A stretch of 15,679 nucleotides of DNA, taken from the NCBI GenBank assembly GCA_048939245.1, contig JBHLPR010000051.1:1-15679 (forward strand), in the 5' to 3' direction. Origin of the DNA: Promethearchaeota archaeon. Lineage in GTDB: Archaea; Asgardarchaeota; Hermodarchaeia; Hermodarchaeales; Hermodarchaeaceae. Below, piece by piece: positions 804 to 15,231 of this stretch (the stretch's first letter is position 1; every line of letters begins with the position of its first letter). Below the pieces are notes generated by a model. The model did no database searches. It had not been told where the DNA came from and saw only the letters and a list, made by a program, of their open reading frames with translations. Position numbers and translations under genes: made by a program.

Positions 804-3698
804 CTATTCTAGGAAAAGTGCTGGGCGACCAGGTAATGCCTTGGGGGCCCGATTTTCAGGATCTTTAATAGGTTTATCTCCATCTTGGATTTCGACCGAG
901 AAACCAGTTTCTGACTGAATGAACTCGCTATTTTCTCTAAGGGCTTTTCCTTCGGTAGTTTTATCAACGAAAGTCCAAAAACCACCTGATTTTGCTATAG
1001 CCTGGACTAGCTCGTTCACTTCCTTACCACGCTTTTTGAGTTTGGTATCTTTCATTAGAATTGGCATCATATCTTTGATTGTTGGTGCTACATTGGCTTT
1101 GGTTACTTTCTTCATCGCCTTATATTTCCAGCTTGGACTGATGAAGATGTGGACAGTAGTAACCGGTTTACCTTTGAGGAGTTTTTTGATTTCTTTGATA
1201 TCAGTAATTGTGTTCATTACTACATCCATGGCTTTCTCAATCTTTTCATCCACAAAGCGTTCTTCAGGCGTTGGCCATGCTTCTAGAGATATAAAGGAAA
1301 TACTTCCTAGACGCTCCCAAATCTCTTCACATAAATGGGGTAGGAGGGGGGTAAGTAGTTTGACCCACCGCGTAATGATGTACCGTAAAACCGCATCTCG
1401 TTCGGGGCTGGCTTTTTTCATTCGTCGCAGATAGAATTCTACATTGTGTAACAGTTGGAAGAAAGTTTGTAGAGCATAATTTCGAAAACGTAGTTGCTCT
1501 AAAGATTCGGTTGCATCACGAATTGTGGTGTTAATCTTTGAAAGAATCCACAGGCTCATCATACTGAGTTTGGGTTCATCTATTTCCACTTCAGGAATTT
1601 TTGAAGCGTTTTCGAGGATGCGCACTAAACGTTTAATTCGACGCTGTATGTTGGTGACATCTTTTTCCTTCCAATCCACTAACGATTGTAAATCTCCTAT
1701 CTGCGTAATATACAGACGGAATAAATCAGCCCCATATCGCTTAGGCACTGCTGCTAAGGGTATGACATTGCCTTTGCTTTTACTCATTTTCTCGCCTTCG
1801 CGAATCACAAATTCGTTGAGCGTAATTGCTTTTGGCCAGTATTTTTCGGGAAATAGTGCTGCATGATGAAAAATGAAGAAGGAGAGGTGATTAGGGATAT
1901 GAGCCACCGCAGTGTGTCGTTGATCATTTGGGTACCAGTATTCGACCTCTTGTCGCATCGTGGTAAGTGCCGCTTGTGCGATTCCGGTCTTTTCCACAAC
2001 CTTGTCAATTTGCCCCTTTCCTAATAGGACATAATCAAAGAATGAGGTGTCTAATTGTTGTTCGGTAATTTGTCCTGCTCGGATATGATGAATGATAAGA
2101 TAGAAGATCATGTAGATTGTTGAGTCAGATAGTGATTCAATCACCCATTTTCGGTCGAAGGGGAGTCGGGTTCCCAAACCCCGCTTTCGAGCTGCTGGCC
2201 GTTCTTTCAACCAATCAAAGGTGGATTCAAACAGTTTGCGGTACATCTCTGGATAAATGAACATCTGGTCTAATGCTTTTGTGGCCCTGGTCTTCCACTC
2301 TCTGTTGCCATAATTAATGAACCATTGATCTGGTAATATGGCAACAACGATTTCATTCCCACAACGGCATACTACTGGTTTTTGGTCGGGTTGGTAAAAT
2401 CGGAAGGCACGGTTTTGCTCTTCGAGAAAGGCAATGACATCTTCTTTGATTTCATTAACTTTTCGTGCTGCAAAAGATCCTGTGTTCTCTTTCATTATGC
2501 CTTGGTAGAATTCAGCTTTATACAGGGTCTCAGTTGCTTCATCGAGCTTTGCAGTTGCTTTCTGATCTTTTATCTTCAATTTTTCAACGAGTTCGATAGC
2601 GGGGTGTTCACCGTATCCTTGGACGCTAATGATTGAGATAGGTTTGATTGCCTTTACCGCATCAAAATCAATTTTGAAACCTTGAATGGCTTTCTTTGTT
2701 TTCTGAATATCATGGAGTGCTGCCCAGTCAAAGGGGGCATGGGAAGGTACGCTATAGACGACCCCTGTTCCGTTTTCTGGATTGACAAATTCTGCTGGTA
2801 AGATAAGGAGCTCTCGCTCTTCGACAGGTGATTTACATATTTTACCAATAAATTCAGAACCAGGGATTTCTTCTAACCGTTTGGATCGATGTCCCTGATT
2901 TACCAACTTTCGAACCGCAGGGGCAGCTACATACCAAATCTCGTCTCCCACTTGGATTTTTGAATAACTAGCATTGGGATTTATCCAGATGTTAGTCACT
3001 CCATAAACCGTTTCGGGACGAAGAGTTGCCGCGACGAGAAATCCGTCTTCGTATGGGAACTTGATGGCTACGAATTCGGCAACTTTTGCATGTTCACCTT
3101 GTAGTAAATCATCTTCGCCTACGGCATTTCCGCAGGAAACACAATAGAGCACTGGATATTTTCCTTTTGTGATGTAGCCTAGTCTTTGAAGATTGATGAA
3201 TTGCCATGTAACAAAGGCATGATACTCAGGATCATTGGTGGTGAATTTACGTCTCCAGTCAATTGAATAGCCTAATTTCCTAAAATCACTTTCAAAGACA
3301 TTGACAAAAAATTGAGCAATCGCTAGCGGGTCGGTAAATGTTGACAATACTGCATTGATATCTTTCTTTGATCGGTAATAACCAATACTCGAACGATATT
3401 CGTTCAGAATAGTTGGATCTTTATCTCGTATTCGTTTTGCCACGCCTGCAACCGGAGTTCCTGTGACATGGGCTGCCATAGGCCATAATACATTGAATCC
3501 TCTCATTCGTTTGTACCGAGCAATAATGTCGCCTATTGTATATGTTCGACCATGACCCACATGCATAGGTGCATTTGCATAGGGATAAGGGACAGTGAGA
3601 TAGAATTTGGGTCGGTTGGGGTTCGGGTCTGCATCAAATGCTTGAGCTTCACGCCATCGCATCTGCCATTTAGGTTCGATTTCTTTTAGGTCAATCAT
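804..3698 (-). CDS. leuS: Leucine--tRNA ligase, archaeal/eukaryotic type
   Basis: 964 aa. Class I motifs PYPYAN..MHVGH (HIGH) and KMSKSKGN, CP1 editing motifs ATLRPETVYG and GTGVVYSVPSHAPFD, WVIESLSDSTIY, and a C-terminal A.PGRPA. Purine-rich RBS (GAGGGGAG) upstream. Confidence 0.97.
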   Translation of the reverse strand: MIDLKEIEPKWQMRWREAQAFDADPNPNRPKFYLTVPYPYANAPMHVGHGRTYTIGDIIARYKRMRGFNVLWPMAAHVTGTPVAGVAKRIRDKDPTILNEYRSSIGYYRSKKDINAVLSTFTDPLAIAQFFVNVFESDFRKLGYSIDWRRKFTTNDPEYHAFVTWQFINLQRLGYITKGKYPVLYCVSCGNAVGEDDLLQGEHAKVAEFVAIKFPYEDGFLVAATLRPETVYGVTNIWINPNASYSKIQVGDEIWYVAAPAVRKLVNQGHRSKRLEEIPGSEFIGKICKSPVEERELLILPAEFVNPENGTGVVYSVPSHAPFDWAALHDIQKTKKAIQGFKIDFDAVKAIKPISIISVQGYGEHPAIELVEKLKIKDQKATAKLDEATETLYKAEFYQGIMKENTGSFAARKVNEIKEDVIAFLEEQNRAFRFYQPDQKPVVCRCGNEIVVAILPDQWFINYGNREWKTRATKALDQMFIYPEMYRKLFESTFDWLKERPAARKRGLGTRLPFDRKWVIESLSDSTIYMIFYLIIHHIRAGQITEQQLDTSFFDYVLLGKGQIDKVVEKTGIAQAALTTMRQEVEYWYPNDQRHTAVAHIPNHLSFFIFHHAALFPEKYWPKAITLNEFVIREGEKMSKSKGNVIPLAAVPKRYGADLFRLYITQIGDLQSLVDWKEKDVTNIQRRIKRLVRILENASKIPEVEIDEPKLSMMSLWILSKINTTIRDATESLEQLRFRNYALQTFFQLLHNVEFYLRRMKKASPERDAVLRYIITRWVKLLTPLLPHLCEEIWERLGSISFISLEAWPTPEERFVDEKIEKAMDVVMNTITDIKEIKKLLKGKPVTTVHIFISPSWKYKAMKKVTKANVAPTIKDMMPILMKDTKLKKRGKEVNELVQAIAKSGGFWTFVDKTTEGKALRENSEFIQSETGFSVEIQDGDKPIKDPENRAPKALPGRPALFLE

Positions 3699-3946: not shown

Positions 3947-4705
3947 ATGTCGAAATTACGGTGCCCTGAATGCCTAATTCTTGTGGGTCCTCAAGATGCC
4001 GTTTGTCCTCAGTGTGGCTATCGGTTTCGAACTGAACAGTTTGAACGCATTCTACCTTTCATGAAACGCCCTGAACGCCAATGGGAAAGTCGGTTATCGC
4101 TGCGACAACGCCTTTGGGGGATTTTACGCTTTCCTGCTATCACCTTTTGGGATATTGCTCATGAACCGGATAACCGGGGGCCAGCCCTAATTTTCTTGGG
4201 TAACCTATTTGCAATCTCGTTGTGGTATGTGGCTATGGCGTGGCATGTCCTCGATATCAGAGAACTGTTGCTATATGGGTTCTTTGGAGTGTTTACAATT
4301 CTTTCCTTGTTATACATGCTGTTGAACATATTTTATTTTGGAATCATTCATGCTATCGTCAATTATTCAGGCCGCGAAGGAGAATTTAGTGAAACATTTC
4401 TTTTGGGGCAGTATGCACTTCTCCCGTTTCTTTTCACAAATCTTGTATCGACTGGATTACTTTTTGTATTTCTCCCGAATACAACAACAGGGAACCTGAC
4501 TTTATTGTACATCAATCCTACTTGGTTAGCTGTTTATGCTCTAGCGAGTATCGCAATCGTATGGGGGGCAATACTTCTTTCGTTAGGAATTCGTGAACGC
4601 TATCGAATGCCTTCAGAAACGGCTCTTCTTATCACTATGAGTGTAACTGTGTTTGTGGTTATCGTTGCATTCGCTGTGCGGACGACCGTGATTCCACTTA
4701 TTTAA
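3947..4705 (+). CDS. Zinc-ribbon + Yip1-domain membrane protein
   Basis: N-terminal CPEC-x10-CPQCG ribbon. 'LWGILRFPAITFWDI' resembles the Yip1 N-terminal motif. About five hydrophobic helices, 'GREGEFSETFLLGQYALLP' matching the Yip1 G.g.f......Ya..P pattern, and 'W...LL..GI......' in the last helices. Confidence 0.75.
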   Translation: MSKLRCPECLILVGPQDAVCPQCGYRFRTEQFERILPFMKRPERQWESRLSLRQRLWGILRFPAITFWDIAHEPDNRGPALIFLGNLFAISLWYVAMAWHVLDIRELLLYGFFGVFTILSLLYMLLNIFYFGIIHAIVNYSGREGEFSETFLLGQYALLPFLFTNLVSTGLLFVFLPNTTTGNLTLLYINPTWLAVYALASIAIVWGAILLSLGIRERYRMPSETALLITMSVTVFVVIVAFAVRTTVIPLI

Positions 4706-5741
4706 AAACTGCTAAAATTTTCAAAGGTTGGGCTAACGCCGAATCAATGATAAATAATGGTTCTTCTTTCTTCAATCGGAGTTTTCCAAGCACCTGCTCA
4801 TCTTCAAGAACCTTTCCACGACGGATAATCTTGGGTTCCTGTAAACCAAAAGTCATTATCAACCGGTTCTTAACCTCTGCAACGGTTTCTTTTCGACCGA
4901 TGGCATAAATTTCACCCTCAAGTCGGAATCGATCACTACAAAGGAAGCAGTTGGGATTTCGAGCTAATTTGAGAATAGTAAATTGTTGATGAAGCCCATC
5001 ATAGAACAGGTAATTATCAAGGGGGGTTCCAATTTTCAAGAGATGCTTTAGCGCTTCTTGGAACTGAATTCCAGCGATTATTGTTGCTACGCTTAAGAGG
5101 GCGGGGAATTTGGGAGGGGGCTCTTCCACTTTTCGACGTTCTCCAGGTGGAGTACAGGCTTTTTGTAGTCGTTCAGCGGGGACAAGAGGTTGGCATTCCA
5201 GGCAAGCAGTGACGAAAGGTACTACTCGTTGCACATTTCCCCACCAGCCATACATTCCACCATGAATGAGAACCTTGTTCTTGTGTACACATAATGAGTT
5301 AAGCCATCGCCTAGCTTCGAAGGTGTCGAGACCATCGATTATGAGATCAGCTTCCTCGTAAATAGAATGCCTGACATCTTGAATCGCACAATTCAATGCA
5401 AGAACCTGAACATCAGGATTCATCTCACGAAGACGTTGGCCAGCGACAACGGCTTTTGCTTTTCCAACGTCCTCGTCGCTGTATAAGTATTGGCGGCTTA
5501 AGTTGGATAATTCAATAGTGTCAAAATCGATTATGACAACTTTCCCTATCCCAGTAAGAACTAAGTCGACAGCTACAATGGTCCCTAATGCTCCCATCCC
5601 TGCTACGATAACCGTGGACTGGGAAAGTTCCTCCTGATCCCAATTTTCCAGGAGTAGTTGACGAGCATACCTTTCTGTTCCTTGATAAACAGGGACCTTC
5701 TTCTTCTCTTCGATAATTTGGTCTTCCATAGCCAATTTCAC
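4698..5741 (-). CDS. Ubiquitin-activating enzyme E1 (ThiF/UBA family, Uba3/Uba2-like) with C-terminal ubiquitin-fold domain
   Basis: GMGALG nucleotide loop, DFDTIELSNLSRQ, GKAKA, GLDTFEARRWLN, Zn pairs CLEC and CFLC, and a probable catalytic Cys in KACTPP. The C-terminal ETVAEVKNRL...IIRRGKVLEDEQVL is beta-grasp-like. The GTG at 5741 overlaps the E2 stop (GTGA); an alternative ATG is at 5729. Confidence 0.92.
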   Translation of the reverse strand: MKLAMEDQIIEEKKKVPVYQGTERYARQLLLENWDQEELSQSTVIVAGMGALGTIVAVDLVLTGIGKVVIIDFDTIELSNLSRQYLYSDEDVGKAKAVVAGQRLREMNPDVQVLALNCAIQDVRHSIYEEADLIIDGLDTFEARRWLNSLCVHKNKVLIHGGMYGWWGNVQRVVPFVTACLECQPLVPAERLQKACTPPGERRKVEEPPPKFPALLSVATIIAGIQFQEALKHLLKIGTPLDNYLFYDGLHQQFTILKLARNPNCFLCSDRFRLEGEIYAIGRKETVAEVKNRLIMTFGLQEPKIIRRGKVLEDEQVLGKLRLKKEEPLFIIDSALAQPLKILAVFK

Positions 5742-6199
5742 CTACGTTGAATCTGGTCCCATCCTGCAAATCGTTTAACCCAATCTCTTGCAGTGCGTTC
5801 GAATTTAACAGGATCTCGTTTTGCTTCTTTTGATGCTCTCTGATTTAAAGGATCATCCGGATTTGGAAAGTTCAATAGATTCCGTAACGTTTCAACAACT
5901 CCGGTTAATGACATGCTAGGAAGCCAATCCTTTCCCAAAATTCCGACGCAGACTCGTCCTCTGTAAATGTTTGGGTGCCAAACCTTTGTGATAAATCGGA
6001 CTTGTGGTGGTTCATAAGGGAAAGAGCGTGGAACATTAATTTGCAAGACAAAAACGCCGCTATCATAGATGCCTGTACCTAATATGAATCCCTGCCATCG
6101 TCTAAGGTCCCCTTGGACAGGTTGGAACGATGGTTCCTCAGTTTCCATATTTTTGGCTTCAAGAGCTAATCTTGCCCAATAGTCCTCTTCTGCTAACAT
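5738..6199 (-). CDS. Ubiquitin-conjugating enzyme E2 (UBC fold, active)
   Basis: FPYEPPQVRFITKVWHPNIYRGRVCVGILGKDWLP contains the HPN motif and catalytic Cys, followed by PNPDDPLN. The ATG at 6199 is preferred over the ORF-track start at 6235. Confidence 0.95.
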   Translation of the reverse strand: MLAEEDYWARLALEAKNMETEEPSFQPVQGDLRRWQGFILGTGIYDSGVFVLQINVPRSFPYEPPQVRFITKVWHPNIYRGRVCVGILGKDWLPSMSLTGVVETLRNLLNFPNPDDPLNQRASKEAKRDPVKFERTARDWVKRFAGWDQIQRR

Positions 6200-6260
6200 G
6201 TGGACAACGCCTCTACCTAGATAAGCCGGTCCCAATTACACTTACCAAATGCGCTAGCCG

Positions 6261-6275
6261 TAAATACCTTTTCGG
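6261..6275 (-). promoter_or_regulatory. Putative internal BRE-TATA promoter for E2-E1 (CCGAAAAGG-TATTTA)
   Basis: Good archaeal BRE plus TATA in the 200-nt gap between ubiquitin and E2. Confidence 0.5.
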
Positions 6276-6341
6276 TTGGTTACTCCTGAATTTAGTTTGC
6301 TTATGGCAAACGCAGCTAAATAGAGGTTTCTTACGATACGT

Positions 6342-6358
6342 AGAAAATACAAAAAATA
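6342..6358 (-). terminator. Putative oligo-T terminator after the ubiquitin gene
   Basis: TATTTTTTGTATTTTC on the minus strand about 40 nt after the ubiquitin stop. Confidence 0.4.
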
Positions 6359-6398
6359 GGTGGGCGACTGAGATCGAAACCGTTCGGTTTTACTGGTT

Positions 6399-6635
6399 CT
6401 AGCCGCCCTCGGTCCTCGTGATGAGGTATAATTTGTCATGTGGTGTGATGCCGACACTCTTGACGGTTTGTTCATCAGTCAGTTGGGCTCCACGATATGC
6501 TAGGATAACGATATTAGGCGGTATCCGTCGCATTTGAGCCACACGATTCCGAATTTCTCCAATAGTTGTATTGGATTCCACCTCAAGAGCGATGGGGTCA
6601 CTACCACCAATCGCTGGTACAACTTCTATTCGCAT
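6399..6635 (-). CDS. Ubiquitin (eukaryote-like beta-grasp modifier) ending in Gly-Gly
   Basis: 78 aa. IALEVESNTTIGEIRNRV, IPP, LAYRGAQLTDEQTV and LYLITRTEGG-stop align to ubiquitin ITLEVEPSDTIENVKAKI, IPP, LIFAGKQLEDGRTL and LHLVLRLRGG. Confidence 0.93.
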   Translation of the reverse strand: MRIEVVPAIGGSDPIALEVESNTTIGEIRNRVAQMRRIPPNIVILAYRGAQLTDEQTVKSVGITPHDKLYLITRTEGG

Positions 6636-6649
6636 TTTTCAACCACCGA

Positions 6650-6901
6650 CTATTTTCTAACCGGTTTCAACCTTCGTAGGTTAATGCGGTTCCGACATAT
6701 GGGACAGGTGCCCTTCATCTTCACCCATTCTGCAAGGTGTCGATAGTGCGCAGGATTGCCACAATGCGGGCAATAGACCATTTGTTCACCATCACGGATT
6801 TGGAGGCGACAAACACAGCACATCGCAGCAGTTTTGGTCCAATCCCATTGGCCAATTTCTTTCACCGATGAGATAACAAACCGTCCTGCTGATTGTGTCA
6901 T
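6650..6901 (-). CDS. Small RING-finger E3 ligase, Rbx1/Apc11-like N-terminus
   Basis: Ligands C28-x2-C31, C44-x2-C47, H52-x2-H55, W59 and C66-x2-C69-R70. Lies 14 nt upstream of ubiquitin; AAGGGG RBS. Confidence 0.88.
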   Translation of the reverse strand: MTQSAGRFVISSVKEIGQWDWTKTAAMCCVCRLQIRDGEQMVYCPHCGNPAHYRHLAEWVKMKGTCPICRNRINLRRLKPVRK

Positions 6902-6949
6902 GTTCTTGCCCCTTGGTCAGTTCCGCTCGGGCAATTCTTCTAGATGCGT

Positions 6950-6959
6950 TCTTAAAAAA
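6950..6959 (-). promoter_or_regulatory. Putative TATA box of the RING-ubiquitin unit (TTTTTTAAG)
   Basis: AT-rich box about 50 nt upstream of the RING ATG. Confidence 0.35.
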
Positions 6960-7025
6960 CTATGGAAATGCGTCCTCACTAAGACGTTTTACTATTTTTC
7001 TCCAAAATCCGTCTGAGGTACAATT

Positions 7026-7190
7026 TTTTTTAGTCAAATTAAAGCGTGAACTACCCCTATACGTGTACAGAGGTTTTCATCGAGTCCGCTACCCCTGGAA
7101 ACTGGTGTAGGGCTGTGTTTCGATGCAAGCCATCCAAGAAATCTCTTAGTGGCTCCCCGTTCACAGGGGATTGCTGCAATAGGAACCGCA
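7026..7190 (-). ncRNA. Putative omegaRNA/reRNA (scaffold overlapping the tnpB 3' end, plus flanking guide GCUUUAAUUUGACUAAAAAA)
   Basis: Minus-strand hairpins TCCCC-TGTGAAC-GGGGA and CCTCTGTAC/GTATAGGGG precede TAGTTCAC. By known TnpB biology the roughly 16-20 nt beyond the right end (7045 down to about 7026) form the guide. The 5' boundary is approximate. Confidence 0.6.
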
Positions 7191-8420
7191 CCATAATATT
7201 GACCGCGGCATTTTGATCCCGATCAAAGGGGGTTCCACAATCGCATTGGATAATGCGCTCTGATAAGGGTCGATTACGAATTTTGCCACAGACACAACAT
7301 GTCTTCGTAGTATAGCTTTCGTCAATTCTCACTACTCTTTTCCCTACACACTTTGCTTTGTAGGTTAAGAATTCGACGAACCTTCCTAAAAACCCAGTAT
7401 TGTGAATGGAATGATTCAAGGTTCTCATTGATTTCAATCTTCGTGAATTAATCACGGGTTTTTCCTTTCTTGCCATTTTCTTAATTTTTATTCTACCGAG
7501 AACTATAGTATTAGCCCGTGTATTTTCAACCACACACTTTGAGATTTTGTGTTGAAAATCACGTAGCTGATTATTCATTTTTCCTTGCATTTTCTTTATT
7601 TTTGCATCATATCTCGACCATTTATTGCTAGAACGTCTACAATGGTCACGTTTTGATTGTACTTCACTAATTCTCTTTTTCCAGTATAGATCTGCACGGC
7701 GATTTCGTATTTGGATAAATTTACCATGTATGTTGACCGCTGTAATCAGATTTTTAATACCCAAGTCTATGGCTTGATACAATCCATTATCTTCGAAGCT
7801 GGGAATATCCTTCATGAAAATGATAGCAACAAACCACCGGCGAAACCGATCCTGGAATAGCTCGACTTGTCTTATTCTCATGATCATTGGTGGGAACCAA
7901 GGCAGACGAAATTTTAATTTAACTTTTGATGGATGGCGATGAGAAAAACAAATCGTCTTCTCATCTGTATCAATAGTAAATCCAGATTGGTTGTAGCACA
8001 AAGTATTGAAGTATTGCTTGCCTTTGAAACGTGGAGGTCTTGCTCGCGTGTCACCTTTATTCCATTGAGCAAAGAAGGACTTGTAATCGGCATCCAAGCG
8101 ACGCAATACCATTTGTAGGACTTTAGAGTAGACCCATGTATATTCAGGGTATTTCTTTTTGAGACCAGGCAAGTCATTCTGTTGCTTGGTATATGTTATG
8201 TAATGTCGTTCAACTTTTGGCTTTATTCGATTTATTTCCCATTGTTGCCTTCGTTCAGCTAAAGCAAAGTTGTAGAGAAGTCGGCATTTCTCAGATAAAT
8301 CCCATAATACCTGCACTTGTTTGGCTGTGGGTTTTATGCGAATCTTTCGTGTCAGTATCACTGTATTCATTCTAACGATAAGGATGCCATCTCTATTCTT
8401 CAATTTATAGGGGAGAGGTG
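7046..8420 (-). mobile_element. IS200/IS605-family TnpB-only (IS1341-like) element; left end not defined
   Basis: tnpB is followed by a subterminal hairpin and ...GGGGTAGTTCAC, the typical right-end pattern, ending at 7046. No tnpA is adjacent. The 8420 boundary is approximate. Confidence 0.75.
7057..8370 (-). CDS. tnpB: RNA-guided endonuclease TnpB
   Basis: N-terminal KIRIKPTAKQ...CRLLYNFAL, RPPRFKGK, RuvC-I AIDLG, Zn finger CCVCG...CDCG and RuvC-III DRDQNAAVNI. The ATG at 8370 is preferred over the TTG at 8454. Confidence 0.93.
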   Translation of the reverse strand: MNTVILTRKIRIKPTAKQVQVLWDLSEKCRLLYNFALAERRQQWEINRIKPKVERHYITYTKQQNDLPGLKKKYPEYTWVYSKVLQMVLRRLDADYKSFFAQWNKGDTRARPPRFKGKQYFNTLCYNQSGFTIDTDEKTICFSHRHPSKVKLKFRLPWFPPMIMRIRQVELFQDRFRRWFVAIIFMKDIPSFEDNGLYQAIDLGIKNLITAVNIHGKFIQIRNRRADLYWKKRISEVQSKRDHCRRSSNKWSRYDAKIKKMQGKMNNQLRDFQHKISKCVVENTRANTIVLGRIKIKKMARKEKPVINSRRLKSMRTLNHSIHNTGFLGRFVEFLTYKAKCVGKRVVRIDESYTTKTCCVCGKIRNRPLSERIIQCDCGTPFDRDQNAAVNIMVRFLLQQSPVNGEPLRDFLDGLHRNTALHQFPGVADSMKTSVHV

Positions 8421-8519
8421 CTGATAAATTACTTAATTGAGAAGCTATATGCAATCGGCAAATAATTAAATGTCTGCGGTGAGTAAACTTGATTGAGAGC
8501 TTCGGGGGTTATTCTAACC

Positions 8520-9056
8520 GTGTCCTCTGAACCACCTAAATACGCTATCGAAATTGAAGCCATCAAAACGCCCAAAGGCTTAGTGCCTACAGTTGAGTCC
8601 CTGAAGCGCATTGTGAAAGGGCTGAACTTACTCGACTCAGACCTTGGACGGATGAATCTAAAGATGGAGGCTAATATTCGCGCCCTCCTCCGGGAGGTCA
8701 AGACACTTCAGAAGCTGGTAGCTGATGATACCATCGCTTCCGAGTCTTCGGTAGAACGGCTCGGAGTTCTTGTCGATCGATTCGAGAACTTTGAAAAAAC
8801 TATAGACAAAGTCACGAAAAAGCAACCTGAGTCGAGTTCGAAAGAACTTCGAGAACTTCAAAAAGAACTCGTTCCCACTTTAACCCACGCGGTTCAACGG
8901 CTTGAAGAAATGGTAGCATTATTTGAAACACGCTTTGCAGAATTCCTTCGTGAATTACAAAGCAACATTCTCGTTACTGTCCGACAAGCTGTCAAAGACT
9001 CCCCTCCTAAACAGAAGACATCCACAAAGCGAAAAACTAAGAGTAGTTCAACATGA
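8520..9056 (+). CDS. Uncharacterised coiled-coil protein heading the ESCRT-I/II operon
   Basis: Long heptad-rich helices and a Lys/Ser/Thr-rich tail. The GTG at 8520 with an upstream GGGGTT is preferred over the TTG at 8493. No family recognised. Confidence 0.7.
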   Translation: MSSEPPKYAIEIEAIKTPKGLVPTVESLKRIVKGLNLLDSDLGRMNLKMEANIRALLREVKTLQKLVADDTIASESSVERLGVLVDRFENFEKTIDKVTKKQPESSSKELRELQKELVPTLTHAVQRLEEMVALFETRFAEFLRELQSNILVTVRQAVKDSPPKQKTSTKRKTKSSST

Positions 9057-9141
9057 CTGCCCCTGACAGGTTCCAGTTGCCAAAGATTAAATGTCCGCTC
9101 TCACTAGCAGGATTCGAATAAAGATATCATGGTGTGTTTCA

Positions 9142-9897
9142 ATGGCACAGGCTGTTAGAAGTCAACAAGAATTAGCGATTGCTCGTGAAGCGCAACTTAT
9201 GTACCGACGTGCGCCCACATTCACCCCCGTAGAGTCTAATCTCCGTCGATGGCGAGGAAAGATCAAAGGCGGGACACGAACTAAGCAAGAATTTCTTGTA
9301 GAGATCATAGTGCCTCCCAACTTTCCAGCTCAACCGCCAGTTGCACGAATGCTTACGCCAACAAAACATCCTCGGGTTGACTCGGAGTCAGGTGCTATTC
9401 ATCTTCGAATAGTCACCCAATGGCAACCTCATTATCACGTCTACCAGGTGGTTAATAGCATCAAAGGTCTTTTCGCCCGTGAGCCTCCTGTGCCAGATGT
9501 AACCCGAGATGCCCCGAAAGTTGAAATGCCTCAGAAGGAGGAAGTTCTTCAGCAACGTTATCAACAACTTGAACGTGAGGTTTCACGATTAACCAAGAAG
9601 GTTCAAGAACGCGACGAACGTCTCGCTAGGATGGCTGCTCAAATAGATACGGGGTCCATTACGGCTGGTGAAGTCACCGACGAAGATGAGCTTGACGAGC
9701 TTATCCTTCCTGCCGATGCAAAGGAAAGAGAGAAGCTTGAACTTGAAAGCGAAAAGCTCGCTATATCAGATCTTTTGCAGAATCTCGAACAAAAATTTGA
9801 CTCCGCTGAGATTACTTCAACCGAATATACAAAACTCTACAAACGATACAAGAAACGACTCTACCAAATTGACAAAGCCCTCGAGAAATACGTCTAA
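9142..9897 (+). CDS. vps23: ESCRT-I Vps23/TSG101-like protein (UEV + coiled coil + steadiness box)
   Basis: UBC fold with HPN changed to HPR and the catalytic Cys replaced (GAIHL), a short Pro-rich linker, a coiled coil (LQQRYQQLEREVSRL), and a C-terminal helical hairpin LLQNLEQKFDSAEITSTEYTKLYKRY like the Vps23/37 core. ATG at 9142 with GGTG RBS; the ORF track starts at 9091. Confidence 0.85.
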   Translation: MAQAVRSQQELAIAREAQLMYRRAPTFTPVESNLRRWRGKIKGGTRTKQEFLVEIIVPPNFPAQPPVARMLTPTKHPRVDSESGAIHLRIVTQWQPHYHVYQVVNSIKGLFAREPPVPDVTRDAPKVEMPQKEEVLQQRYQQLEREVSRLTKKVQERDERLARMAAQIDTGSITAGEVTDEDELDELILPADAKEREKLELESEKLAISDLLQNLEQKFDSAEITSTEYTKLYKRYKKRLYQIDKALEKYV

Positions 9898-9923
9898 CCT
9901 AATCTAGTTCAGAGGCGAATGCT

Positions 9924-10571
9924 ATGGCCATGCGTGAGAAAAAACGACCCAAAAAAGTGAAGGTTGTCGAACTAGAAGCTGAATTGTATGGTACGATAGC
10001 AACCCTTGACAGTATTGCAGAAAAATTCGACGAGGGAGATTTACAACCCGCGCTCTATAAGCGACAATTTAAATCACTGGTTAGCGACACCATCAAAACC
10101 CGACAACTACTTGAGGCAGAAGGTGAAAGTTGGGACGAATTTGTGGAAGAGGAAAATATCACCGAACGGTTTCCTACTGCTGTGGAAAAACTTCAACTTG
10201 GTGAACGCGCCCCTGAAGGCGAGGAAACCGTTGAACTTGCACCCCAAACCTCAGCACGAATGGCTGCGAAAACTGCCGATATTGTCTCAGATCTAATCAC
10301 ACTTATTGATATTGCCAAACTCGGCGACGTAGCAAAAATGAGCTTAATCGTACCTCTCTTGGATGACGCCATCATCCTCTTGACTAAGTATCCTAACTTC
10401 CCACCTGAATATTGGATATTGGTTGCGCTCAAAGATTGGCGAAATCAGCTCCAAGGAAGAGATCCGCACGAGACACTTAATAGCGAAGAATCTAAACAAC
10501 TCGAATTTCAGGCTGTTCGCTGGCTAAATGACTTTAAGCGACGACTCCGAGAGATGGCAGCTGATGAATGA
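9924..10571 (+). CDS. vps28: ESCRT-I subunit Vps28
   Basis: N-terminal AELYGTIATLDSIAEKF...Y...F..L and C-terminal four-helix bundle ADIVSDLITLIDIAKL...LIVPLL...W...L...ETLNSEESKQLEFQ match Vps28 (AELysIi.tld.lEkay; A.....FIT.MDALKL...lhPLL; dtL.e.q.RqllFd). Confidence 0.9.
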   Translation: MAMREKKRPKKVKVVELEAELYGTIATLDSIAEKFDEGDLQPALYKRQFKSLVSDTIKTRQLLEAEGESWDEFVEEENITERFPTAVEKLQLGERAPEGEETVELAPQTSARMAAKTADIVSDLITLIDIAKLGDVAKMSLIVPLLDDAIILLTKYPNFPPEYWILVALKDWRNQLQGRDPHETLNSEESKQLEFQAVRWLNDFKRRLREMAADE

Positions 10572-10590
10572 ATGTTGAGGCAGAAAGCTG

Positions 10591-10884
10591 ATGGTACACC
10601 CAATGCGTTCCTTTGCCGAAATGCGCGAACGGTTGGTGAACGCTATCAACAAAGCTAATCTGCGTATCAACGCGGAGTACATCCTTGAAGATTTAGATGT
10701 GGTCGCAGCCTTTGCTGAAGCCATGCTTGGCTTTGATCACCCTGTAACACAGGAAGCCCAGGAATGGTATGAATACTTCTGGGCAAAATATGGAAATAAT
10801 CTAACCCAACATGTAGAGGAAGTAGAGGCGCGACGCTTTGCGATGCGCGCTGAAACCTGGCTCAATTATATTCGACAAATATGA
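10591..10884 (+). CDS. Small helical protein, probable stand-alone Vps28 C-terminal-domain paralog
   Basis: 97 aa with a GAGG RBS and an ATGA overlap with vps22. Aligns by eye over its whole length to the C-terminal domain of the adjacent Vps28 (see findings). Confidence 0.6.
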   Translation: MVHPMRSFAEMRERLVNAINKANLRINAEYILEDLDVVAAFAEAMLGFDHPVTQEAQEWYEYFWAKYGNNLTQHVEEVEARRFAMRAETWLNYIRQI

Positions 10885-11633
10885 GGAGGAAGAATCTCTT
10901 GGGACTTTGGGAAATCGAAAAGCAAATGGAAATGGATGCAGCGTACAAAAAGAAACGTGTCGAGTTAATGCTCAAGGAATTAGAACATATGCTTCAAAGC
11001 ATTTCTGAACTTCGAGATAAAGCAGATGTCTTTGAGGAGACTTATGGCGAGGTTATCGAGGTCTCGCCGGAATATAGTGAAAAAGCTGCCACAATTGCCC
11101 ATGAGTTAGGGATCACTATGCCGGGCATTCCATTTTCCGAAGATATGAAAGAAAAACCCGGATTAATGGAACGTCTCACTGGTCGAGGACGTTTCTACGA
11201 TGAATTAGGATTACAAATCCTTGACATCGCCAAACGACGTCGAGACGCTACCGGTGGCATCATGACCTTAGCAGAAATAGTACTGATTGTCAATAAACAA
11301 CGTCGGTCAAGTGTTTCCCAAGTCAATGTAGCCAAAGCTATCCAGAATTTGGCCAATGCTAAATTAATACCAGGAATTCGAAAACTTCCTTCAGGAATCC
11401 GAATCGTAGAACTCATTCCACGAGAATTAACAAATGATCAGGTTGCTGTTCTCTCCATTGCAAGTCGGTCCGGATATACCACCCTCGAAGAAGTTATGAA
11501 CAAAACCAAATGGAACCAAGAAAGAGCTGACGCCGCTCTCCAAAGCCTTGAAGCCGTCGGAGCTGCAAAGATCGATAAATCCTTTGTTCACGGTAAACGC
11601 TATTTCTTCCCCGGTCTAAACCCCACAGACTGA
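10881..11633 (+). CDS. vps22: ESCRT-II subunit Vps22/SNF8 (EAP30 family)
   Basis: FYDELGLQILDI....RDATGGIMTL, SVS..NV.KAI..L, IPRELTNDQVAVLSIA..SGYTT, W..ERA..AL..L...G...ID and YFFP all match Snf8/Vps22. The N-terminal MRRK..G basic helix also resembles SNF8. Confidence 0.92.
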   Translation: MRRKNLLGLWEIEKQMEMDAAYKKKRVELMLKELEHMLQSISELRDKADVFEETYGEVIEVSPEYSEKAATIAHELGITMPGIPFSEDMKEKPGLMERLTGRGRFYDELGLQILDIAKRRRDATGGIMTLAEIVLIVNKQRRSSVSQVNVAKAIQNLANAKLIPGIRKLPSGIRIVELIPRELTNDQVAVLSIASRSGYTTLEEVMNKTKWNQERADAALQSLEAVGAAKIDKSFVHGKRYFFPGLNPTD

Positions 11634-11650
11634 ACGCACCCAAGAACGAC

Positions 11651-12379
11651 TTAAATCAGCACCTCAACTACTTCTCGTTCTCGATCCAGCCATTTTGCCT
11701 GGTTTCTACTCACTAAACATTCAAGAATAATGCGCAGTTCAGATTTTGGTAAGGTCGCCAAGTCCTTACGATACTCTTTCAATTTGAACAGAGTGAATGT
11801 GGTTCGACCAGTCTTCAAAGCCCATTGACGAATTTCGTTCGCCCATTCATCATCAGTTTTCCATGTAATCCGAATAATTCCTTCGGCTTCATCAATCCAA
11901 CGACCCAGCTCTTCCTTAACAAGAACCCCAAGAATGATTTTCACCGCTTGTATGCGGTCTGGACGAAGATCATTGAACGGATCTAACATTACCAGTGTCC
12001 GTGTCGACACAATGTGCAATAGCATCTCTCGGCAATAATCAACGGTAAAACCTGCCCATTCGGCTCCCCATTGTTCGATATCAGCTTCCGAAGTTGGAAT
12101 GACAAACATAAAGCCATATCGGCCGCGTTTGGCAATCCAGACGAATCGTCGGCCAAGTTTCGCAATTGCTTTACGGGCTAATTCCTCGAGCTCTTTCTCT
12201 TCTTCTTCGGTCACAGGCATAACAAAAACAGCGGCGTCATCTTCTTGCTCAACGCTAGCCATCTGTTCGCGTGTCTTCTTCAGGAGGTCCAACCACTCTT
12301 CTTCAGTAAGCTCGATATCAGCTCGTAATTCATCTTTCTCCTTCGGTTTGGACCGTTCCCTAGGCTTTTCCTTCGACAC
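11651..12379 (-). CDS. vps25: ESCRT-II subunit Vps25 with acidic N-terminal extension
   Basis: EW..F..DYCR, PFN, IL..LV....GRWID....I.ITWKTDDEWANEIRQWA..TG...FTLFKL and IL..LV...QA match the tandem winged helices of Vps25. GTG start 10 nt after the vps4 stop. Confidence 0.85.
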   Translation of the reverse strand: MSKEKPRERSKPKEKDELRADIELTEEEWLDLLKKTREQMASVEQEDDAAVFVMPVTEEEEKELEELARKAIAKLGRRFVWIAKRGRYGFMFVIPTSEADIEQWGAEWAGFTVDYCREMLLHIVSTRTLVMLDPFNDLRPDRIQAVKIILGVLVKEELGRWIDEAEGIIRITWKTDDEWANEIRQWALKTGRTTFTLFKLKEYRKDLATLPKSELRIILECLVSRNQAKWLDREREVVEVLI

Positions 12380-12389
12380 GTTCTATCCC

Positions 12390-13547
12390 CTATGAACCAT
12401 GCGTGTTATCCCATTCAATATATCTCGCCTGCTCTTCAGGTGAAACCACCGACCGGATATTCTTAAGGGCATCAAGAAAATCTTGAAGATTCACTGGACG
12501 CGCCATAACCTCCTTATCACGAATAGCCCCTGATGCATCCATTTCCCGGATGGGTTGCAGCGATGCTTCACGGCAGATAAGCGCAATATCTGAGCCTGCA
12601 TATTCATCTGTTTTTTCACCGAGTATGTTAAAATCTACATCTGGAGCTAAATCAATCCCCTTCGTATGAATTTCAAAGATGCGAACGCGCGCTTCGAATT
12701 CTGGAATAGGCACCAAGATTCGTCGTTCAAATCGACGTCGGAATGCGGCATCAAGATCCCAAGGACGATTTGTTGCCCCTAATACGACAATATGGTCGCC
12801 CTTCTTGCTCTTCATTCCATCCATTTCGATCAAAAACTGGGTTTTAAGACGGCGTTCGCCACCCACCTGATCGGCACCTCTTTCAGCAGTGAGTGCGTCA
12901 ACCTCGTCCATAAACACAATAGCCGGTTGCTCCTTTCGGGCAGATGTAAAGAGGTTTTTGACTAACCGCTCGGATTCGCCTAACCATTTAGACACTAGCG
13001 ATGCTGCATCTGCGTTGAAGAAGGTGCATCCGACCTCATTCGCCACCGCCTTGGCAATCAGAGTCTTGCCACATCCCGGTGGGCCAAAGAGCAATACACC
13101 CTTCCAGGGACGCCGAGCTCCGGTAAACAAGTCAGGGCGGAGCAAGGGTAGAATCACTGATTCACGAAGCGCTTGTTTTGCCTCTTCAAGATCTGCTACA
13201 TCTTCCCATTTGACATCGGGTTTTTCTTTGATGATCATGCTATCGATGTCTTCCTGTAACTCCTTATCTTCTTGGTCTTCAATCTCTACTCCCTCAAAAT
13301 CGGGAGCCGGGCCCCGGGCAGGAATCTTAGCACTCCGCAGGGTCTTCGCTCGTGCTACATACTGATCCGCGCGCTCTAAGGCGATACGACGGAGTTGCGG
13401 GTTCTTGGACACTTTCATGACCCGCACAAGAATATCAGCGGCTTCGATGTACTTGGACATCGCTGCGGACCGCTTCCCTTGCTGATCTAAGACTAAGGCT
13501 TCATTGGCTTTTGTTTCTGCAAGCTGAAACATCGCTGAGCTGGTCAA
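12390..13547 (-). CDS. vps4: Vps4 AAA+ ATPase (MIT + AAA)
   Basis: MIT domain (A...A...D..G....A...Y..A...L...Y..RA..L), KPDVKWEDVA.LE.AK.ALRE.VILP, RPWKGVLLFGPPGCGKT, LVSKWLGESE, MDEVD, ATNRPWDLD.A.RRRFERRI, and a C-terminal W...HGS. TTG start, with an alternative ATG at 13532. Confidence 0.95.
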   Translation of the reverse strand: MTSSAMFQLAETKANEALVLDQQGKRSAAMSKYIEAADILVRVMKVSKNPQLRRIALERADQYVARAKTLRSAKIPARGPAPDFEGVEIEDQEDKELQEDIDSMIIKEKPDVKWEDVADLEEAKQALRESVILPLLRPDLFTGARRPWKGVLLFGPPGCGKTLIAKAVANEVGCTFFNADAASLVSKWLGESERLVKNLFTSARKEQPAIVFMDEVDALTAERGADQVGGERRLKTQFLIEMDGMKSKKGDHIVVLGATNRPWDLDAAFRRRFERRILVPIPEFEARVRIFEIHTKGIDLAPDVDFNILGEKTDEYAGSDIALICREASLQPIREMDASGAIRDKEVMARPVNLQDFLDALKNIRSVVSPEEQARYIEWDNTHGS

Positions 13548-13596
13548 TTCCTATCAACCTATTATGAACACTTATCTAATCTCTGGAAAACGCCTT

Positions 13597-13604
13597 CTTA
13601 AATA
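13597..13604 (-). promoter_or_regulatory. Putative TATA box of vps4-vps25 (TATTTAAG)
   Basis: TATA-like box about 50 nt upstream of the vps4 start. Confidence 0.4.
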
Positions 13605-13726
13605 TGGTCTACTCCACAAAACTCGATAGCCTCCCATCATCAAATCCCAATAGCTTAGAAAGAAAAGGGATATCAAACTAAAGTGTTGATTTAAACTTAA
13701 AGGGTGTATTGTGTGGAAAAGCCCGC

Positions 13727-13921
13727 TTAAGTGCCGTCCTCGCTGTCTATCTTGTTCTTCTTCCACCATCTGTTTCGATAATTTAAGTACACCCATCCAA
13801 CTGCCGTAGATATAATCGCAATGGGAACTACATGCCAGTAGAACCGAAAGCTCCATAACAAGACTGCTATACAAATGGCGGTGACATACAACGCAATGGC
13901 AACGAAATCTTGTTTTAACAT
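13727..13921 (-). CDS. Small two-helix membrane protein
   Basis: 64 aa with two hydrophobic segments and a basic-then-acidic tail. Strong RBS AAGGTGAG; starts 15 nt after the upstream stop. Confidence 0.65.
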   Translation of the reverse strand: MLKQDFVAIALYVTAICIAVLLWSFRFYWHVVPIAIISTAVGWVYLNYRNRWWKKNKIDSEDGT

Positions 13922-13936
13922 TTGCTCACCTTACTA

Positions 13937-15091: not shown

Positions 15092-15214
15092 CCCAATTCC
15101 CTCTGAACTGTTGATAAATCATTGTTGTTGCGATTTAAGTGTTCTGGGAACTCGGTGAGATAAACGACGCTGTCTAAGGGGTTCTTCTGTAACAGCCCCT
15201 TTAGCATCCTTGCA

Positions 15215-15231
15215 GAAGATAATTTATCTTC
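15215..15231. promoter_or_regulatory. Perfect 8-1-8 inverted repeat GAAGATAA-T-TTATCTTC, candidate operator
   Basis: Directly visible palindrome in the intergenic region about 125 nt upstream of the protease-like gene. Confidence 0.4.

Follow-up and report, generated by a model that had tools for sequence, protein, structure and literature searches.

How much is new when a complete ubiquitin conjugation cassette and the genes for ESCRT-I, ESCRT-II and Vps4 stand side by side on one archaeal contig, and what might such a neighbourhood do? We examined a stretch of 15,679 nucleotides, called the window below. Our main conclusion is that it very probably holds an orthologous copy of the already described Hermodarchaeota (Asgard) ubiquitin-ESCRT cluster, with ubiquitin-ESCRT sorting as its working model. 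A preliminary description had located the conjugation enzymes, UEV-Vps23, Vps28, Vps22, Vps25 and Vps4 between 4698 and 13547, and Pfam searches find all of these there, together with mature ubiquitin. It had also assigned the cluster to a class already known from Asgard archaea, rightly so (Lu et al. 2023, bioRxiv 10.1101/2023.07.25.550441; Hatano et al. 2022, PMC9192718; Makarova et al. 2024, PMC10936438). The genes are intact, and the sequence motifs that the enzymes need were found. The features are:

3947-4705, plus strand: zinc-ribbon and Yip1-domain membrane protein (Pfam Yip1, E 2.4e-14; Zn_ribbon_3)
4698-5741, minus strand: E1, ubiquitin-activating enzyme (Pfam ThiF, E 7e-62)
5738-6235, minus strand: E2, ubiquitin-conjugating enzyme (Pfam UQ_con, E 8.5e-34)
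6399-6635, minus strand: ubiquitin (Pfam ubiquitin, E 7e-12)
6650-6901, minus strand: small RING E3 ligase (zf-RING_2, 29.8 bits for a cut-off of 27.3 bits; Prok-RING_1, 28 bits)
6902-7045, no strand: ancestral divergent intergenic region, RING side (alignment to four relatives)
7046-8465, minus strand: IS200/IS605-type TnpB-only element, 1,420 bp (Pfam HTH_OrfB_IS605, OrfB_IS605, Cas12f1-like_TNB)
8466-8519, no strand: ancestral intergenic region, ESCRT-I side (TTAAAT TATA-like box and GGGGG ribosome-binding-like stretch)
8520-9056, plus strand: coiled-coil protein, 178 aa (matches the description of asCOG005522 by Lu et al. 2023)
9091-9897, plus strand: UEV-Vps23, ESCRT-I (Pfam UQ_con, E 6e-16; UEV and Vps23_core weak)
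9924-10571, plus strand: Vps28, ESCRT-I, full length, C-terminal domain included (Pfam VPS28, E 5.8e-14)
10591-10884, plus strand: stand-alone protein like the Vps28 C-terminal domain, 97 aa (fold and profile match)
10881-11633, plus strand: Vps22-like ESCRT-II subunit, EAP30 (Pfam EAP30, E 1.7e-25, residues 8-232)
11651-12379, minus strand: Vps25-like ESCRT-II subunit (Pfam ESCRT-II, E 9.6e-11, residues 105-202)
12390-13547, minus strand: Vps4 AAA+ ATPase with MIT, AAA, lid and Vps4_C (Pfam)

These genes form three blocks: RING-Ub-E2-E1 on the minus strand, led by RING; coiled-coil-UEV-Vps23-Vps28-Vps28CTD-Vps22 on the plus strand, led by the coiled-coil gene; and Vps4-Vps25 on the minus strand. 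The Yip1 gene, which lies outside 4698-13547, is a conserved neighbour; it converges on E1, and the two overlap by 8 bp. The Yip1-E1 pairing is also found in L034, L019, L023 and L031. The N-terminal CxxC...CxxC of the Yip1 protein is kept in 6 of 8 homologues, and the genome has two Yip1 genes. A zinc-ribbon Yip1 gene converging on E1 is also seen in several distant Asgard families.

The ubiquitin cassette has what conjugation requires in terms of motifs. The E1 is built from a single ThiF-type adenylation domain and a C-terminal ubiquitin-fold-like tail, in which a weak match to the ubiquitin family falls at 4764-4904; its closest solved structures are eukaryotic UBA7 and UBA1. It carries GMGALG (residues 48-53), CLEC (180-183) and CFLC (265-268), and Cys196, within ACTPP, is the candidate catalytic residue. 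In the E2, HPN occupies residues 87-89 and Cys96 aligns with the active-site Cys of Ubc4. Ubiquitin is encoded in mature form, the stop codon coming directly after its C-terminal ...RTEGG. Its alignment with residues 12-76 of eukaryotic ubiquitin has no gaps, and chains 2MQJ and 6FNN, whose PDB label is just 'Ubiquitin-like protein', match it along its whole length. K59 and K68 are the only lysines of the archaeal protein, and Ala stands at both the Ile44 and Lys48 positions of eukaryotic ubiquitin; the eukaryotic surface is therefore not to be presumed for UEV binding. The RING ligand pattern is C28/C31, C44/H46(C47), H52/H55 and C66/C69. Genome-wide profile searches place the sole E2, UEV and ubiquitin genes of the genome in this cluster: UQ_con returns only the E2 and the UEV, and the one other ubiquitin-family match is the E1 tail. 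No deubiquitinase is encoded in the cluster, and the single JAB/MPN gene of the genome is on contig C72.

The preliminary description had counted two extra, uncharacterised members in the ESCRT-I/II operon. Both ORFs (8493/8520-9056 and 10591-10884) are indeed real, conserved genes, but the adjective has to go, since the asCOG005522 and Vps28-CTD families are in the literature. The coiled-coil gene had been listed as a 187-aa ORF from 8493; as called, it encodes 178 aa. It has no Pfam family, and its 50 homologues are all annotated as 'hypothetical' or misnamed; their N-terminal half is close to invariant, and the TPxGxVPT motif is kept across eight families. The AF2 model (pLDDT 64) consists of two long helices (24-100 and 108-159). 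These features fit membership in the asCOG005522 family as described (Lu et al. 2023).

The 97-aa protein is a stand-alone Vps28 C-terminal domain. Its gene overlaps the start of vps22 by 4 bp, and neither Pfam nor BLASTP gives any similarity for it. The AF2 model is a four-helix bundle (pLDDT 91), for which Foldseek ranks 2J9W_B and 2J9W_A at the top (TM 0.84, rmsd 1.9 Å; next match 0.47) and VIA gives 2J9U_A, the yeast Vps28 C-terminus (Z 11.6). By hhalign it matches Vps28 C-terminal domains at 96.9% (E 2e-10), against 0.2% for the N-terminal-domain control. Six families have a homologous small ORF between vps28 and vps22, and the protein family is small, with six representatives at E up to 0.001 in a 50%-identity representative library. 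The neighbouring full-length Vps28 is covered by the VPS28 profile over residues 19-206, corresponding to profile positions 2-186 of 188.

UEV-Vps23 comprises an E2-variant domain, a PPVP linker, a stalk and a steadiness box. Its UEV has HPR instead of HPN and His104 at the position of the catalytic Cys, where none of 26 orthologues has a Cys, and the domain is predicted to be catalytically dead. The C-terminus of UEV-Vps23 and the N-terminus of Vps28 share a steadiness box (hhalign 94.9%).

In the third block, Vps25 begins with an acidic extension of about 100 aa; extra N-terminal subdomains have been reported for Asgard Vps25 (Makarova et al. 2024). Vps4 carries a Walker A (GPPGCGKT, 155-162) and a Walker B motif (DEVD, 214-217). 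Neither of the two ESCRT-III genes is present in the window: in this genus a separate contig (C19) carries both of them, along with a Znr-PH-SB protein. The preliminary description mentions neither this location, nor the TnpB element within its span, nor the absence of a deubiquitinase from the cluster.

The TnpB element (tnpB ORF, 7057-8370/8454) accounts for most of the sequence that separates the first block from the second. On the RING side, a conserved TATA-like block at 6950-6968, TTCTTAAAAAACTATGGAAAT, is invariant in the four aligned relatives save L011, which has GATAATAAAAAACTTTGGAAAT, with three positions changed; it would serve as the promoter of the RING unit. Homology to relatives on this side stops after ...AAAGC at 7045, and on the ESCRT-I side it is conserved from TTAAA(A/T)G on, where the TATA-like box may be the promoter of the ESCRT-I/II unit. 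The element is inserted between two predicted, divergent promoters. Relatives have the uninterrupted site AAAGCTTAAAAG, compared with AAAGC, element, TTAAAT in the window; the element is absent from every related locus compared (13 MAGs), and its only other copy, on contig C88, is 63% identical. Judging from these alignments, the gap between the two blocks is a recent, lineage-specific TnpB insertion that left both TATA-like boxes in place.

Of 13 Hermodarchaeota-like MAGs assembled independently, 11 have the same gene order from ZnuA/LeuRS through Vps4, to the extent that their contigs cover it, with protein identities of 74-99%; a twelfth spans the ESCRT part only, and L015 differs in its left flank. 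The nearest of these collinear loci have a Vps28 that is 82-94% identical and come from MAGs whose record titles read Candidatus Hermodarchaeota or Promethearchaeota. The three-block layout recurs in the sister genus L034 and in the closed 1.42-Mb genome L031, is mirrored in L017, and has partial forms in 15 more families. The clustering is not due to chance: the order recurs in related MAGs and, varied, in 17 further Asgard families. Physical linkage is nevertheless dispensable, because ESCRT-III is unlinked to Vps4 here and the ubiquitin cassette of L015 is not beside the ESCRT operon.

The field's working model for such clusters is ubiquitin-directed membrane cargo sorting, which would extend to the window by way of its orthologues. 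Ubiquitin is produced mature, with its GG end, as its gene shows directly. From the intact motifs, E1 would adenylate and thioesterify ubiquitin and hand it to the single E2 at Cys96, and the RING E3 would direct it to lysines. The cascade of Helarchaeial orthologues has been followed in vitro, where its substrate was UEV-Vps23 itself, mono-ubiquitylated (Lu et al. 2023); this is the sole demonstrated substrate of the orthologous cascade, and it is not cargo. The Cys-less UEV of Vps23 would bind ubiquitin or ubiquitylated membrane proteins, by analogy with other Asgard orthologues, for which UEV-ubiquitin binding and ESCRT-I/II interactions have been reported in vitro (Hatano et al. 2022). The homologous steadiness boxes of Vps23 and Vps28 would assemble ESCRT-I, and the Vps28 C-terminal domain, probably along with its stand-alone copy, would contact ESCRT-II, made of Vps22 and Vps25. 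Finally, Vps25 may nucleate the two ESCRT-III proteins, to be taken apart by Vps4.

It is conceivable, although we think it rather unlikely, that the ubiquitin cassette mainly regulates ESCRT-I, the RING docking on the UEV and mono-ubiquitylating the Vps23 steadiness box as a switch between autoinhibited and active states. Indeed, the Helarchaeial cascade modifies a steadiness-box lysine, the E3 binds the UEV partly through its N-terminal loop, and the UEV, folded back onto the Vps23 domain, competes with Vps28 (Lu et al. 2023). In our data, the steadiness-box lysines K222, K235, K255 and K262 are kept in 21-24 of 26 orthologues, the PPVP linker motif is found, and RING and the UEV-Vps23 operon, headed by the coiled-coil gene, form a conserved divergent pair in eight families. 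However, three further RING-like ORFs occur in the genome alongside a single E2, which suggests further substrates, and the reported high-affinity UEV-ubiquitin binding is equally compatible with cargo capture (Lu et al. 2023). Moreover, regulation of ESCRT-I and tagging of cargo are compatible with each other.

A doubtful but possible alternative to endosome-like internal sorting is that the machinery acts at the plasma membrane, in division, repair or outward budding, with ubiquitin as a recruitment signal. TACK archaea divide by means of ESCRT-III and Vps4, and protein sorting and division have been viewed as alternative specialisations (Makarova et al. 2024); extracellular vesicle formation has been sketched as a hypothetical output (Hatano et al. 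2022), and the window encodes no endomembrane marker. Against this, the UEV, ESCRT-I and ESCRT-II are precisely the half of the eukaryotic pathway that recognises cargo, and division-type Cdv systems are devoid of all three.

It is improbable that the cassettes are adjacent by descent alone, with ubiquitin working independently of ESCRT in degradation by the proteasome, a role proposed for other ubiquitin-like systems in archaea. In L015 a gene for UDP-glucose dehydrogenase, not the ubiquitin cassette, adjoins the ESCRT operon, the two cassettes are several kb apart in L032 and L023, and LeuRS and ZnuA are kept in the same block of closely related genomes, so that within-genus synteny alone proves little. 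The divergent pair of RING and coiled-coil-UEV-Vps23 nevertheless outlasts rearrangements across the eight families, the single UEV domain of the genome is fused to Vps23, and orthologous UEVs bind ubiquitin while an orthologous E3 modifies Vps23 (Lu et al. 2023). As for the concern, voiced in the preliminary description, that the contig is an assembly chimera of unrelated genome pieces, the MAG is fragmented (122 contigs, 88% complete, 3.6% contamination) and a mobile element lies between two blocks, but the idea is effectively refuted by order and junctions that recur in the 11 independently assembled MAGs of related species as well as in closed genomes from other families, by an even GC content (0.39-0.48), by element flanks that join exactly to the uninterrupted site, and by a second TnpB copy that, at 63% identity, is too divergent to cause a misjoin.

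We therefore retain the reading of an orthologous ubiquitin-ESCRT cluster, and its likeness to known systems is close. Tight clustering has been described in Hermodarchaeia and Helarchaeia (Lu et al. 2023, Fig. 1b, Fig. S1), with ubiquitin, RING E3, asCOG005522 and UEV-Vps23 together and the E1/E2 and ESCRT genes tightly grouped. The window differs by its TnpB element in the RING/asCOG005522 intergenic region and by its mature ubiquitin, the Helarchaeial protein being made as a pro-form. Because the arrangement is already published for the Hermodarchaeia lineage, from which the literature cited reports no cultured member, there is little local novelty beyond the TnpB insertion and a few accessory genes; what is local to the window or genus is the element, the placement of ESCRT-III and Znr-PH-SB on another contig, and the zinc-ribbon Yip1 gene.

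The preliminary description had proposed unfused Vps23 and Vps28 and the three-block layout as distinctive and had called for comparison with published loci. [quoted passage not shown] 2022). The L031 locus (Yip1-E1-E2-Ub-RING, diverging coiled-coil-UEV-Vps23-Vps28-Vps22, converging Vps25-Vps4) fits that published cluster. Unlike the window, L031 has two ESCRT-III genes directly after Vps4, no stand-alone Vps28-CTD gene, and a Yip1 without zinc ribbon.

Eukaryotic ESCRT-I consists of Vps23/Tsg101, Vps28, Vps37 and Mvb12, and ESCRT-II of Vps22, Vps36 and two copies of Vps25. Shared with the window are a UEV without catalytic Cys, steadiness boxes in Vps23 and Vps28, the four-helix Vps28 C-terminal domain, winged-helix ESCRT-II subunits and a MIT-AAA Vps4. 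In contrast to eukaryotes, no Vps37, Mvb12 or Vps36 homologues were detected, the coiled-coil partner has no steadiness box detectable by profile comparison, a free Vps28-CTD is added, the genes are all in operons, and one E2 and one ubiquitin serve the whole genome. Separately encoded Asgard Vps28-C genes, and a co-direction rule for vps25-vps4 and vps22-vps23-vps28, have been described (Makarova et al. 2024). Those genes, of about 100 aa, beside a full vps28 and upstream of vps22, differ in nothing of substance from the window copy, which fold and profile comparison confirm here.

The ubiquitin-ESCRT cluster carried by the window is real, was correctly identified in the preliminary description, and is complete in its core: ubiquitin, E1, E2, a RING E3, UEV-Vps23, Vps28, ESCRT-II and Vps4, all features of Asgard clusters, are found together. 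The contig (C54) makes up the entire window and comes from a MAG of 2.52 Mb in 122 contigs, 88% complete. Genes were called from the ORF listing and Pfam; neither an Rfam scan nor a tRNA scan found an RNA gene in the window.

Features of the window, from the ORF listing and Pfam
left end of the window: ZnuA-like fragment, the leftmost feature
804-3698, minus: LeuRS
3947-4705, plus: zinc-ribbon and Yip1 membrane protein
4698-5741, minus: E1/ThiF
5738-6235, minus: E2
6399-6635, minus: ubiquitin
6650-6901, minus: RING protein
7057-8454, minus: TnpB
8493/8520-9056, plus: coiled-coil ORF (orf187), without Pfam family (ORF listing)
9091-9897, plus: UEV-Vps23
9924-10571, plus: Vps28
10591-10884, plus: 97-aa ORF (orf97), without Pfam family (ORF listing)
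10881-11633, plus: Vps22/EAP30
11651-12379, minus: Vps25
12390-13547, minus: Vps4
right of Vps4: 349-aa membrane protein, without family (Pfam)

Every gene named in the preliminary description is present at the position assigned to it, and the reported arrangement in three divergent and convergent units is borne out: the RING side and the coiled-coil side diverge, and Vps25-Vps4 converges. Scanning species-representative genomes for Vps28 gave 13 loci at 82-94% identity, all from Candidatus Hermodarchaeota or Promethearchaeota MAGs except two labelled Odin- and Thorarchaeota. When all window proteins were compared with these loci by tblastn, read as far as each contig reaches, a single gene order emerged at about 74-99% identity: ZnuA-LeuRS-Yip1-E1-E2-Ub-RING / orf187-UEV-Vps23-Vps28-orf97-Vps22 / Vps25-Vps4. 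Both halves of the cluster are spanned by 11 of the 13; the two exceptions are L012, which holds the ESCRT part only, and L015, which has a different left flank. Because related loci share this order, the contig is not a chimera, the possibility on which the preliminary description might have foundered; the even GC content along the contig and the empty-site alignments described below also exclude it.

Beyond the close relatives, a sample of 400 genomes of the phylum contained Vps28 in 278, and about 20 kb around this gene was compared in 18 genomes of 17 other families and the sister genus. ORFs were labelled with iterated HMMs seeded with window proteins; since the E2, UEV, Vps23, Vps28, steadiness-box protein and orf97 profiles merged through shared domains, the final labels rest on ORF length and gene order, a weakness of this comparison. 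The sister genus (L034) has an arrangement identical to that of the window, with a pair of ESCRT-III genes and the gene of a steadiness-box protein of 498 aa directly after it. The closed 1.42-Mb genome (L031) reads Yip1-E1-E2-Ub-RING / coil-UEV-Vps23-Vps28-Vps22 / Vps25-Vps4 / diverging ESCRT-III (two genes), in agreement with the single cluster with separate Vps23 and Vps28 of Odinarchaeum (Hatano et al. 2022, PMC9192718). One further family (L017) has the mirror image of the window layout, and the remaining sampled families have partial or shuffled versions. The window order therefore matches described Asgard clusters, and the features put forward as particular to this instance (separate Vps23 and Vps28 genes, three blocks, additional genes) are the common state.

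The conjugation enzymes have intact motifs throughout. Ubiquitin (Pfam E 7e-12) aligns without gaps to residues 12-76 of eukaryotic ubiquitin and ends in GG78 with the stop codon directly after, so that it is encoded ready-made; it has two lysines only, and Ala at both the Ile44 and the Lys48 positions. The E1 (ThiF, E 7e-62) is closest, among solved structures, to the active adenylation domains of UBA7 and UBA1; it carries GMGALG (GxGxxG type) and two CxxC pairs. Its putative catalytic cysteine is Cys196, in ACTPP at the crossover-loop position, an assignment by position only, and a weak ubiquitin-family match in its last ~80 residues is consistent with a ubiquitin-fold domain. The E2 has HPN at 87-89, and its Cys96 aligns to the active-site cysteine of Ubc4. 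The RING protein scores above the zf-RING_2 gathering cut-off with eight Cys/His zinc ligands, the spacing between ligands 4 and 5 being longer than in a textbook RING-H2.

Genome-wide family searches found no further E2, UEV or ubiquitin gene in the rest of this genome. Three ThiF-family genes exist besides the E1, together with three RING-like ORFs related to the cluster E3 (C66:2557-2913, C38:49614-49781 and C89:10003-10155 on other contigs), one of them carrying two RING-like domains; these may be further E3s working with the single E2. The sole JAB/MPN protein of the genome, a candidate deubiquitinase of 230 aa, is encoded on contig C72 (L035, 3403-4915), away from the ubiquitin cluster and adjoining a Roadblock/LC7-domain gene.

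Among the ESCRT proteins, Vps28, Vps22, Vps25 and Vps4 all have Pfam matches above cut-offs, and Vps4 presents MIT, Walker A, Walker B and Vps4_C. The Vps23_core match of UEV-Vps23 is weak (E 1.9e-4); its steadiness box matches the Vps28 N-terminus (hhalign 94.9%). Its UEV domain has an HPR motif and His104 at the position of the catalytic cysteine, and a cysteine is absent there from all 26 orthologues compared, which come from many families. The direction of vps22 is that of vps23 and vps28, and that of vps25 is shared with vps4, as described by Makarova et al. 2024 (PMC10936438).

Two additional operon genes had been called uncharacterised. Both are real, and both fit families noted in the literature. 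For orf97, Pfam gave no match, BLASTP found no similarity to the neighbouring Vps28, and phmmer of this ORF and of the coiled-coil ORF against PDB sequences returned noise only (Nop58, E 1.2; apolipoprotein A-I, E 0.3); its homology is visible only by fold and profile comparison. It is predicted to fold as a four-helix bundle (pLDDT 91), for which Foldseek ranks the 2J9W chains of the Vps28 C-terminal domain highest (2J9W_B, TM 0.84, rmsd 1.9 A), the next unrelated match lying far below at TM 0.47. VIA-align gave the yeast Vps28 C-terminus (2J9U_A) a Z of 11.6, a score that generic four-helix bundles, CheA P1 for example, also reach. Profiles of the small-ORF family matched Vps28 C-terminal halves (hhalign 96.9%, E 2e-10) and, as a negative control, gave 0.2% against the Vps28 N-terminal half. 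In predicted topology and by profile homology, orf97 is a Vps28 C-terminal-domain-like bundle. Equivalents lie between vps28 and vps22 in six families, and orf97 agrees with the separately encoded Vps28 C-terminal domains that some Asgard genomes have beside a full vps28 (Makarova et al. 2024, PMC10936438).

The other of the two, the first gene of the operon, encodes as called a coiled-coil protein of 178 aa from a start at 8520. Its 50 homologues, none informatively named, are 55-60% identical apart from a nearly invariant N-terminus: about 70 residues (8520-8640) are nearly unchanged, the N-terminal half as a whole is almost invariant, and a TPxGxVPT motif, which reads TPKGLVPT in the window, is kept across eight Asgard families; this suggests a tightly constrained binding surface. 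The AF2 model, of low confidence (pLDDT 64, pTM 0.26), has two long helices. That this ORF is a Vps37/Mvb12 or Vps23 paralogue is unsupported: hhalign detected no steadiness box in it (Vps23 C-terminus 5.7%, Vps28 N-terminus 0.9%), coiled coils being hard to compare in this way. In position and character the protein fits asCOG005522 of Lu et al. (bioRxiv 10.1101/2023.07.25.550441).

A third accessory gene, that of the zinc-ribbon Yip1 protein (3947-4705), overlaps E1 convergently by 8 bp. The same convergence occurs in the sister genus (L034), in L019 and L023 and in the closed genome (L031), making at least four other Asgard families, several of them distant. In a fifth, the largest family, two genomes have a Yip1 gene next to Vps28, and L033 has one close to ubiquitin. 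There are two Yip1 genes only in the genome of the window. Lu et al. (bioRxiv 10.1101/2023.07.25.550441) report Yip1 in a ubiquitin-ESCRT context for Hodarchaeia only, and our literature search found no other source on it.

In the sister genus, as in other families, the ESCRT-III pair adjoins Vps4; in the window it is not beside vps4/vps25, and both Snf7 genes are on contig C19. This is no bar to cluster membership, because published clusters vary too. Snf7 is likewise absent past Vps4 in same-genus loci extending more than 1 kb beyond it. The C19 locus (L016, 3317-6818) is a second ESCRT locus, in which the gene of a 497-aa protein with Zn-ribbon, GRAM/PH-like and Vps23_core/steadiness-box matches, similar to the Znr_PH_CC_SB family (Makarova et al. 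2024, PMC10936438), is convergent with two Snf7 genes and a 192-aa gene without known family. A block of this type directly follows Vps4 in the sister genus. In the window, the segment right of Vps4 (13548-15679) is without counterpart in the related loci, and it marks the synteny breakpoint where other lineages carry ESCRT-III. We treated the genes at 13572-14986 as outside the cluster, since they have no homologues in relatives. The segment holds a 64-aa two-helix ORF, the 349-aa membrane protein, rich in Gly and aromatic residues, and, where the contig ends, a ferredoxin-like fragment.

The spacer between RING and orf187 measures about 176 bp in relatives versus about 1.6 kb in the window, where alignments place an insertion of 1,420 bp at 7046-8465. 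It is flanked by ...AAAGC and TTAAAT...; relatives read AAAGCTTAAAAG unbroken, and the site is empty in all those fetched. The insert encodes a TnpB with three Pfam domains (HTH_OrfB_IS605, OrfB_IS605 and a Cas12f1-like TNB); no TnpA was found within the window by ORF listing or Pfam, and the genome holds a paralogue of 63% identity on contig C88 and four distant copies. By its domain set, its precise insertion and its further copies, 7046-8465 is an IS200/IS605-type TnpB-only element. Read on the minus strand, which is that of the element, its left end borders on ...ATTTAA, a candidate target motif. The element sits exactly between two divergent promoter-like blocks, and conserved TATA-like blocks survive on both sides, so both operons may have kept their core promoters. 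It is a natural perturbation of a shared control region, in a spacer that tolerates disruption. The same spacer is a rearrangement breakpoint in the relative L015, in which the ubiquitin cassette has given way to a UDP-glucose dehydrogenase gene (L015 8300-8600) and homology ends about 25-30 bp left of the TnpB insertion point of the window; it looks like a recurrent breakpoint. In one genome (L020) of the family with the UEV-Vps28 fusion, the ubiquitin-ESCRT cluster itself contains three TnpB fragments, between vps4 and vps25 (4209-5662), with a full TnpB a further 4.5 kb on.

Intact motifs and conserved context make the published mechanism the best-supported reading of the locus. The E1-E2-RING cascade would attach the ready-made ubiquitin, which the Cys-less UEV of Vps23 would read; the homologous steadiness boxes would join Vps23 to Vps28, Vps28-CTD-type bundles would provide the link to Vps22 and Vps25, and ESCRT-III with Vps4 would finish membrane remodelling. 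For orthologues, UEV-ubiquitin binding and Vps23-Vps28 assembly have been obtained in vitro (Hatano et al. 2022, PMC9192718; Lu et al., bioRxiv 10.1101/2023.07.25.550441), and the Hel cascade mono-ubiquitylates the Vps23 steadiness box in vitro (Lu et al.). By analogy with these orthologues of other lineages, thioester transfer and UEV-ubiquitin binding are predicted for the window proteins.

Comparative evidence indicates that three accessory genes accompany the core machinery, those of the Zn-ribbon Yip1 protein, of the asCOG005522 coiled-coil protein and of the free Vps28-CTD. It is conceivable, if rather unlikely, that these conserved genes have a role, so far unrecognised, in an ESCRT-0/I layer of archaea. 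The Yip1 protein would then serve as a receptor in the membrane or as the first substrate; the coiled-coil protein would supply the missing stalk or the missing partner of the UEV as its ligand, and so be functionally analogous to Vps37/Mvb12 or ESCRT-0; and the free Vps28-CTD, translationally coupled to vps22, would be the 'undetermined factor' bridging ESCRT-I and ESCRT-II.

Beyond the described cluster there is a modest remainder: the TnpB inserted into the common control region, ESCRT-III being encoded apart in this genus, and the trio of Yip1, coiled-coil protein and free Vps28-CTD. Its practical use is as a compact gene set for reconstitution. The window cluster adds nothing new to the published Hermod-, Hel- and Odinarchaeia clusters; it is an orthologue of the cluster already described for the Hermodarchaeial lineage, and a clean, minimal example, with the one ubiquitin, one E2 and one UEV of the genome held together, of the Asgard ubiquitin-ESCRT clusters, the antecedent among prokaryotes of the ubiquitin-dependent membrane sorting of eukaryotes.
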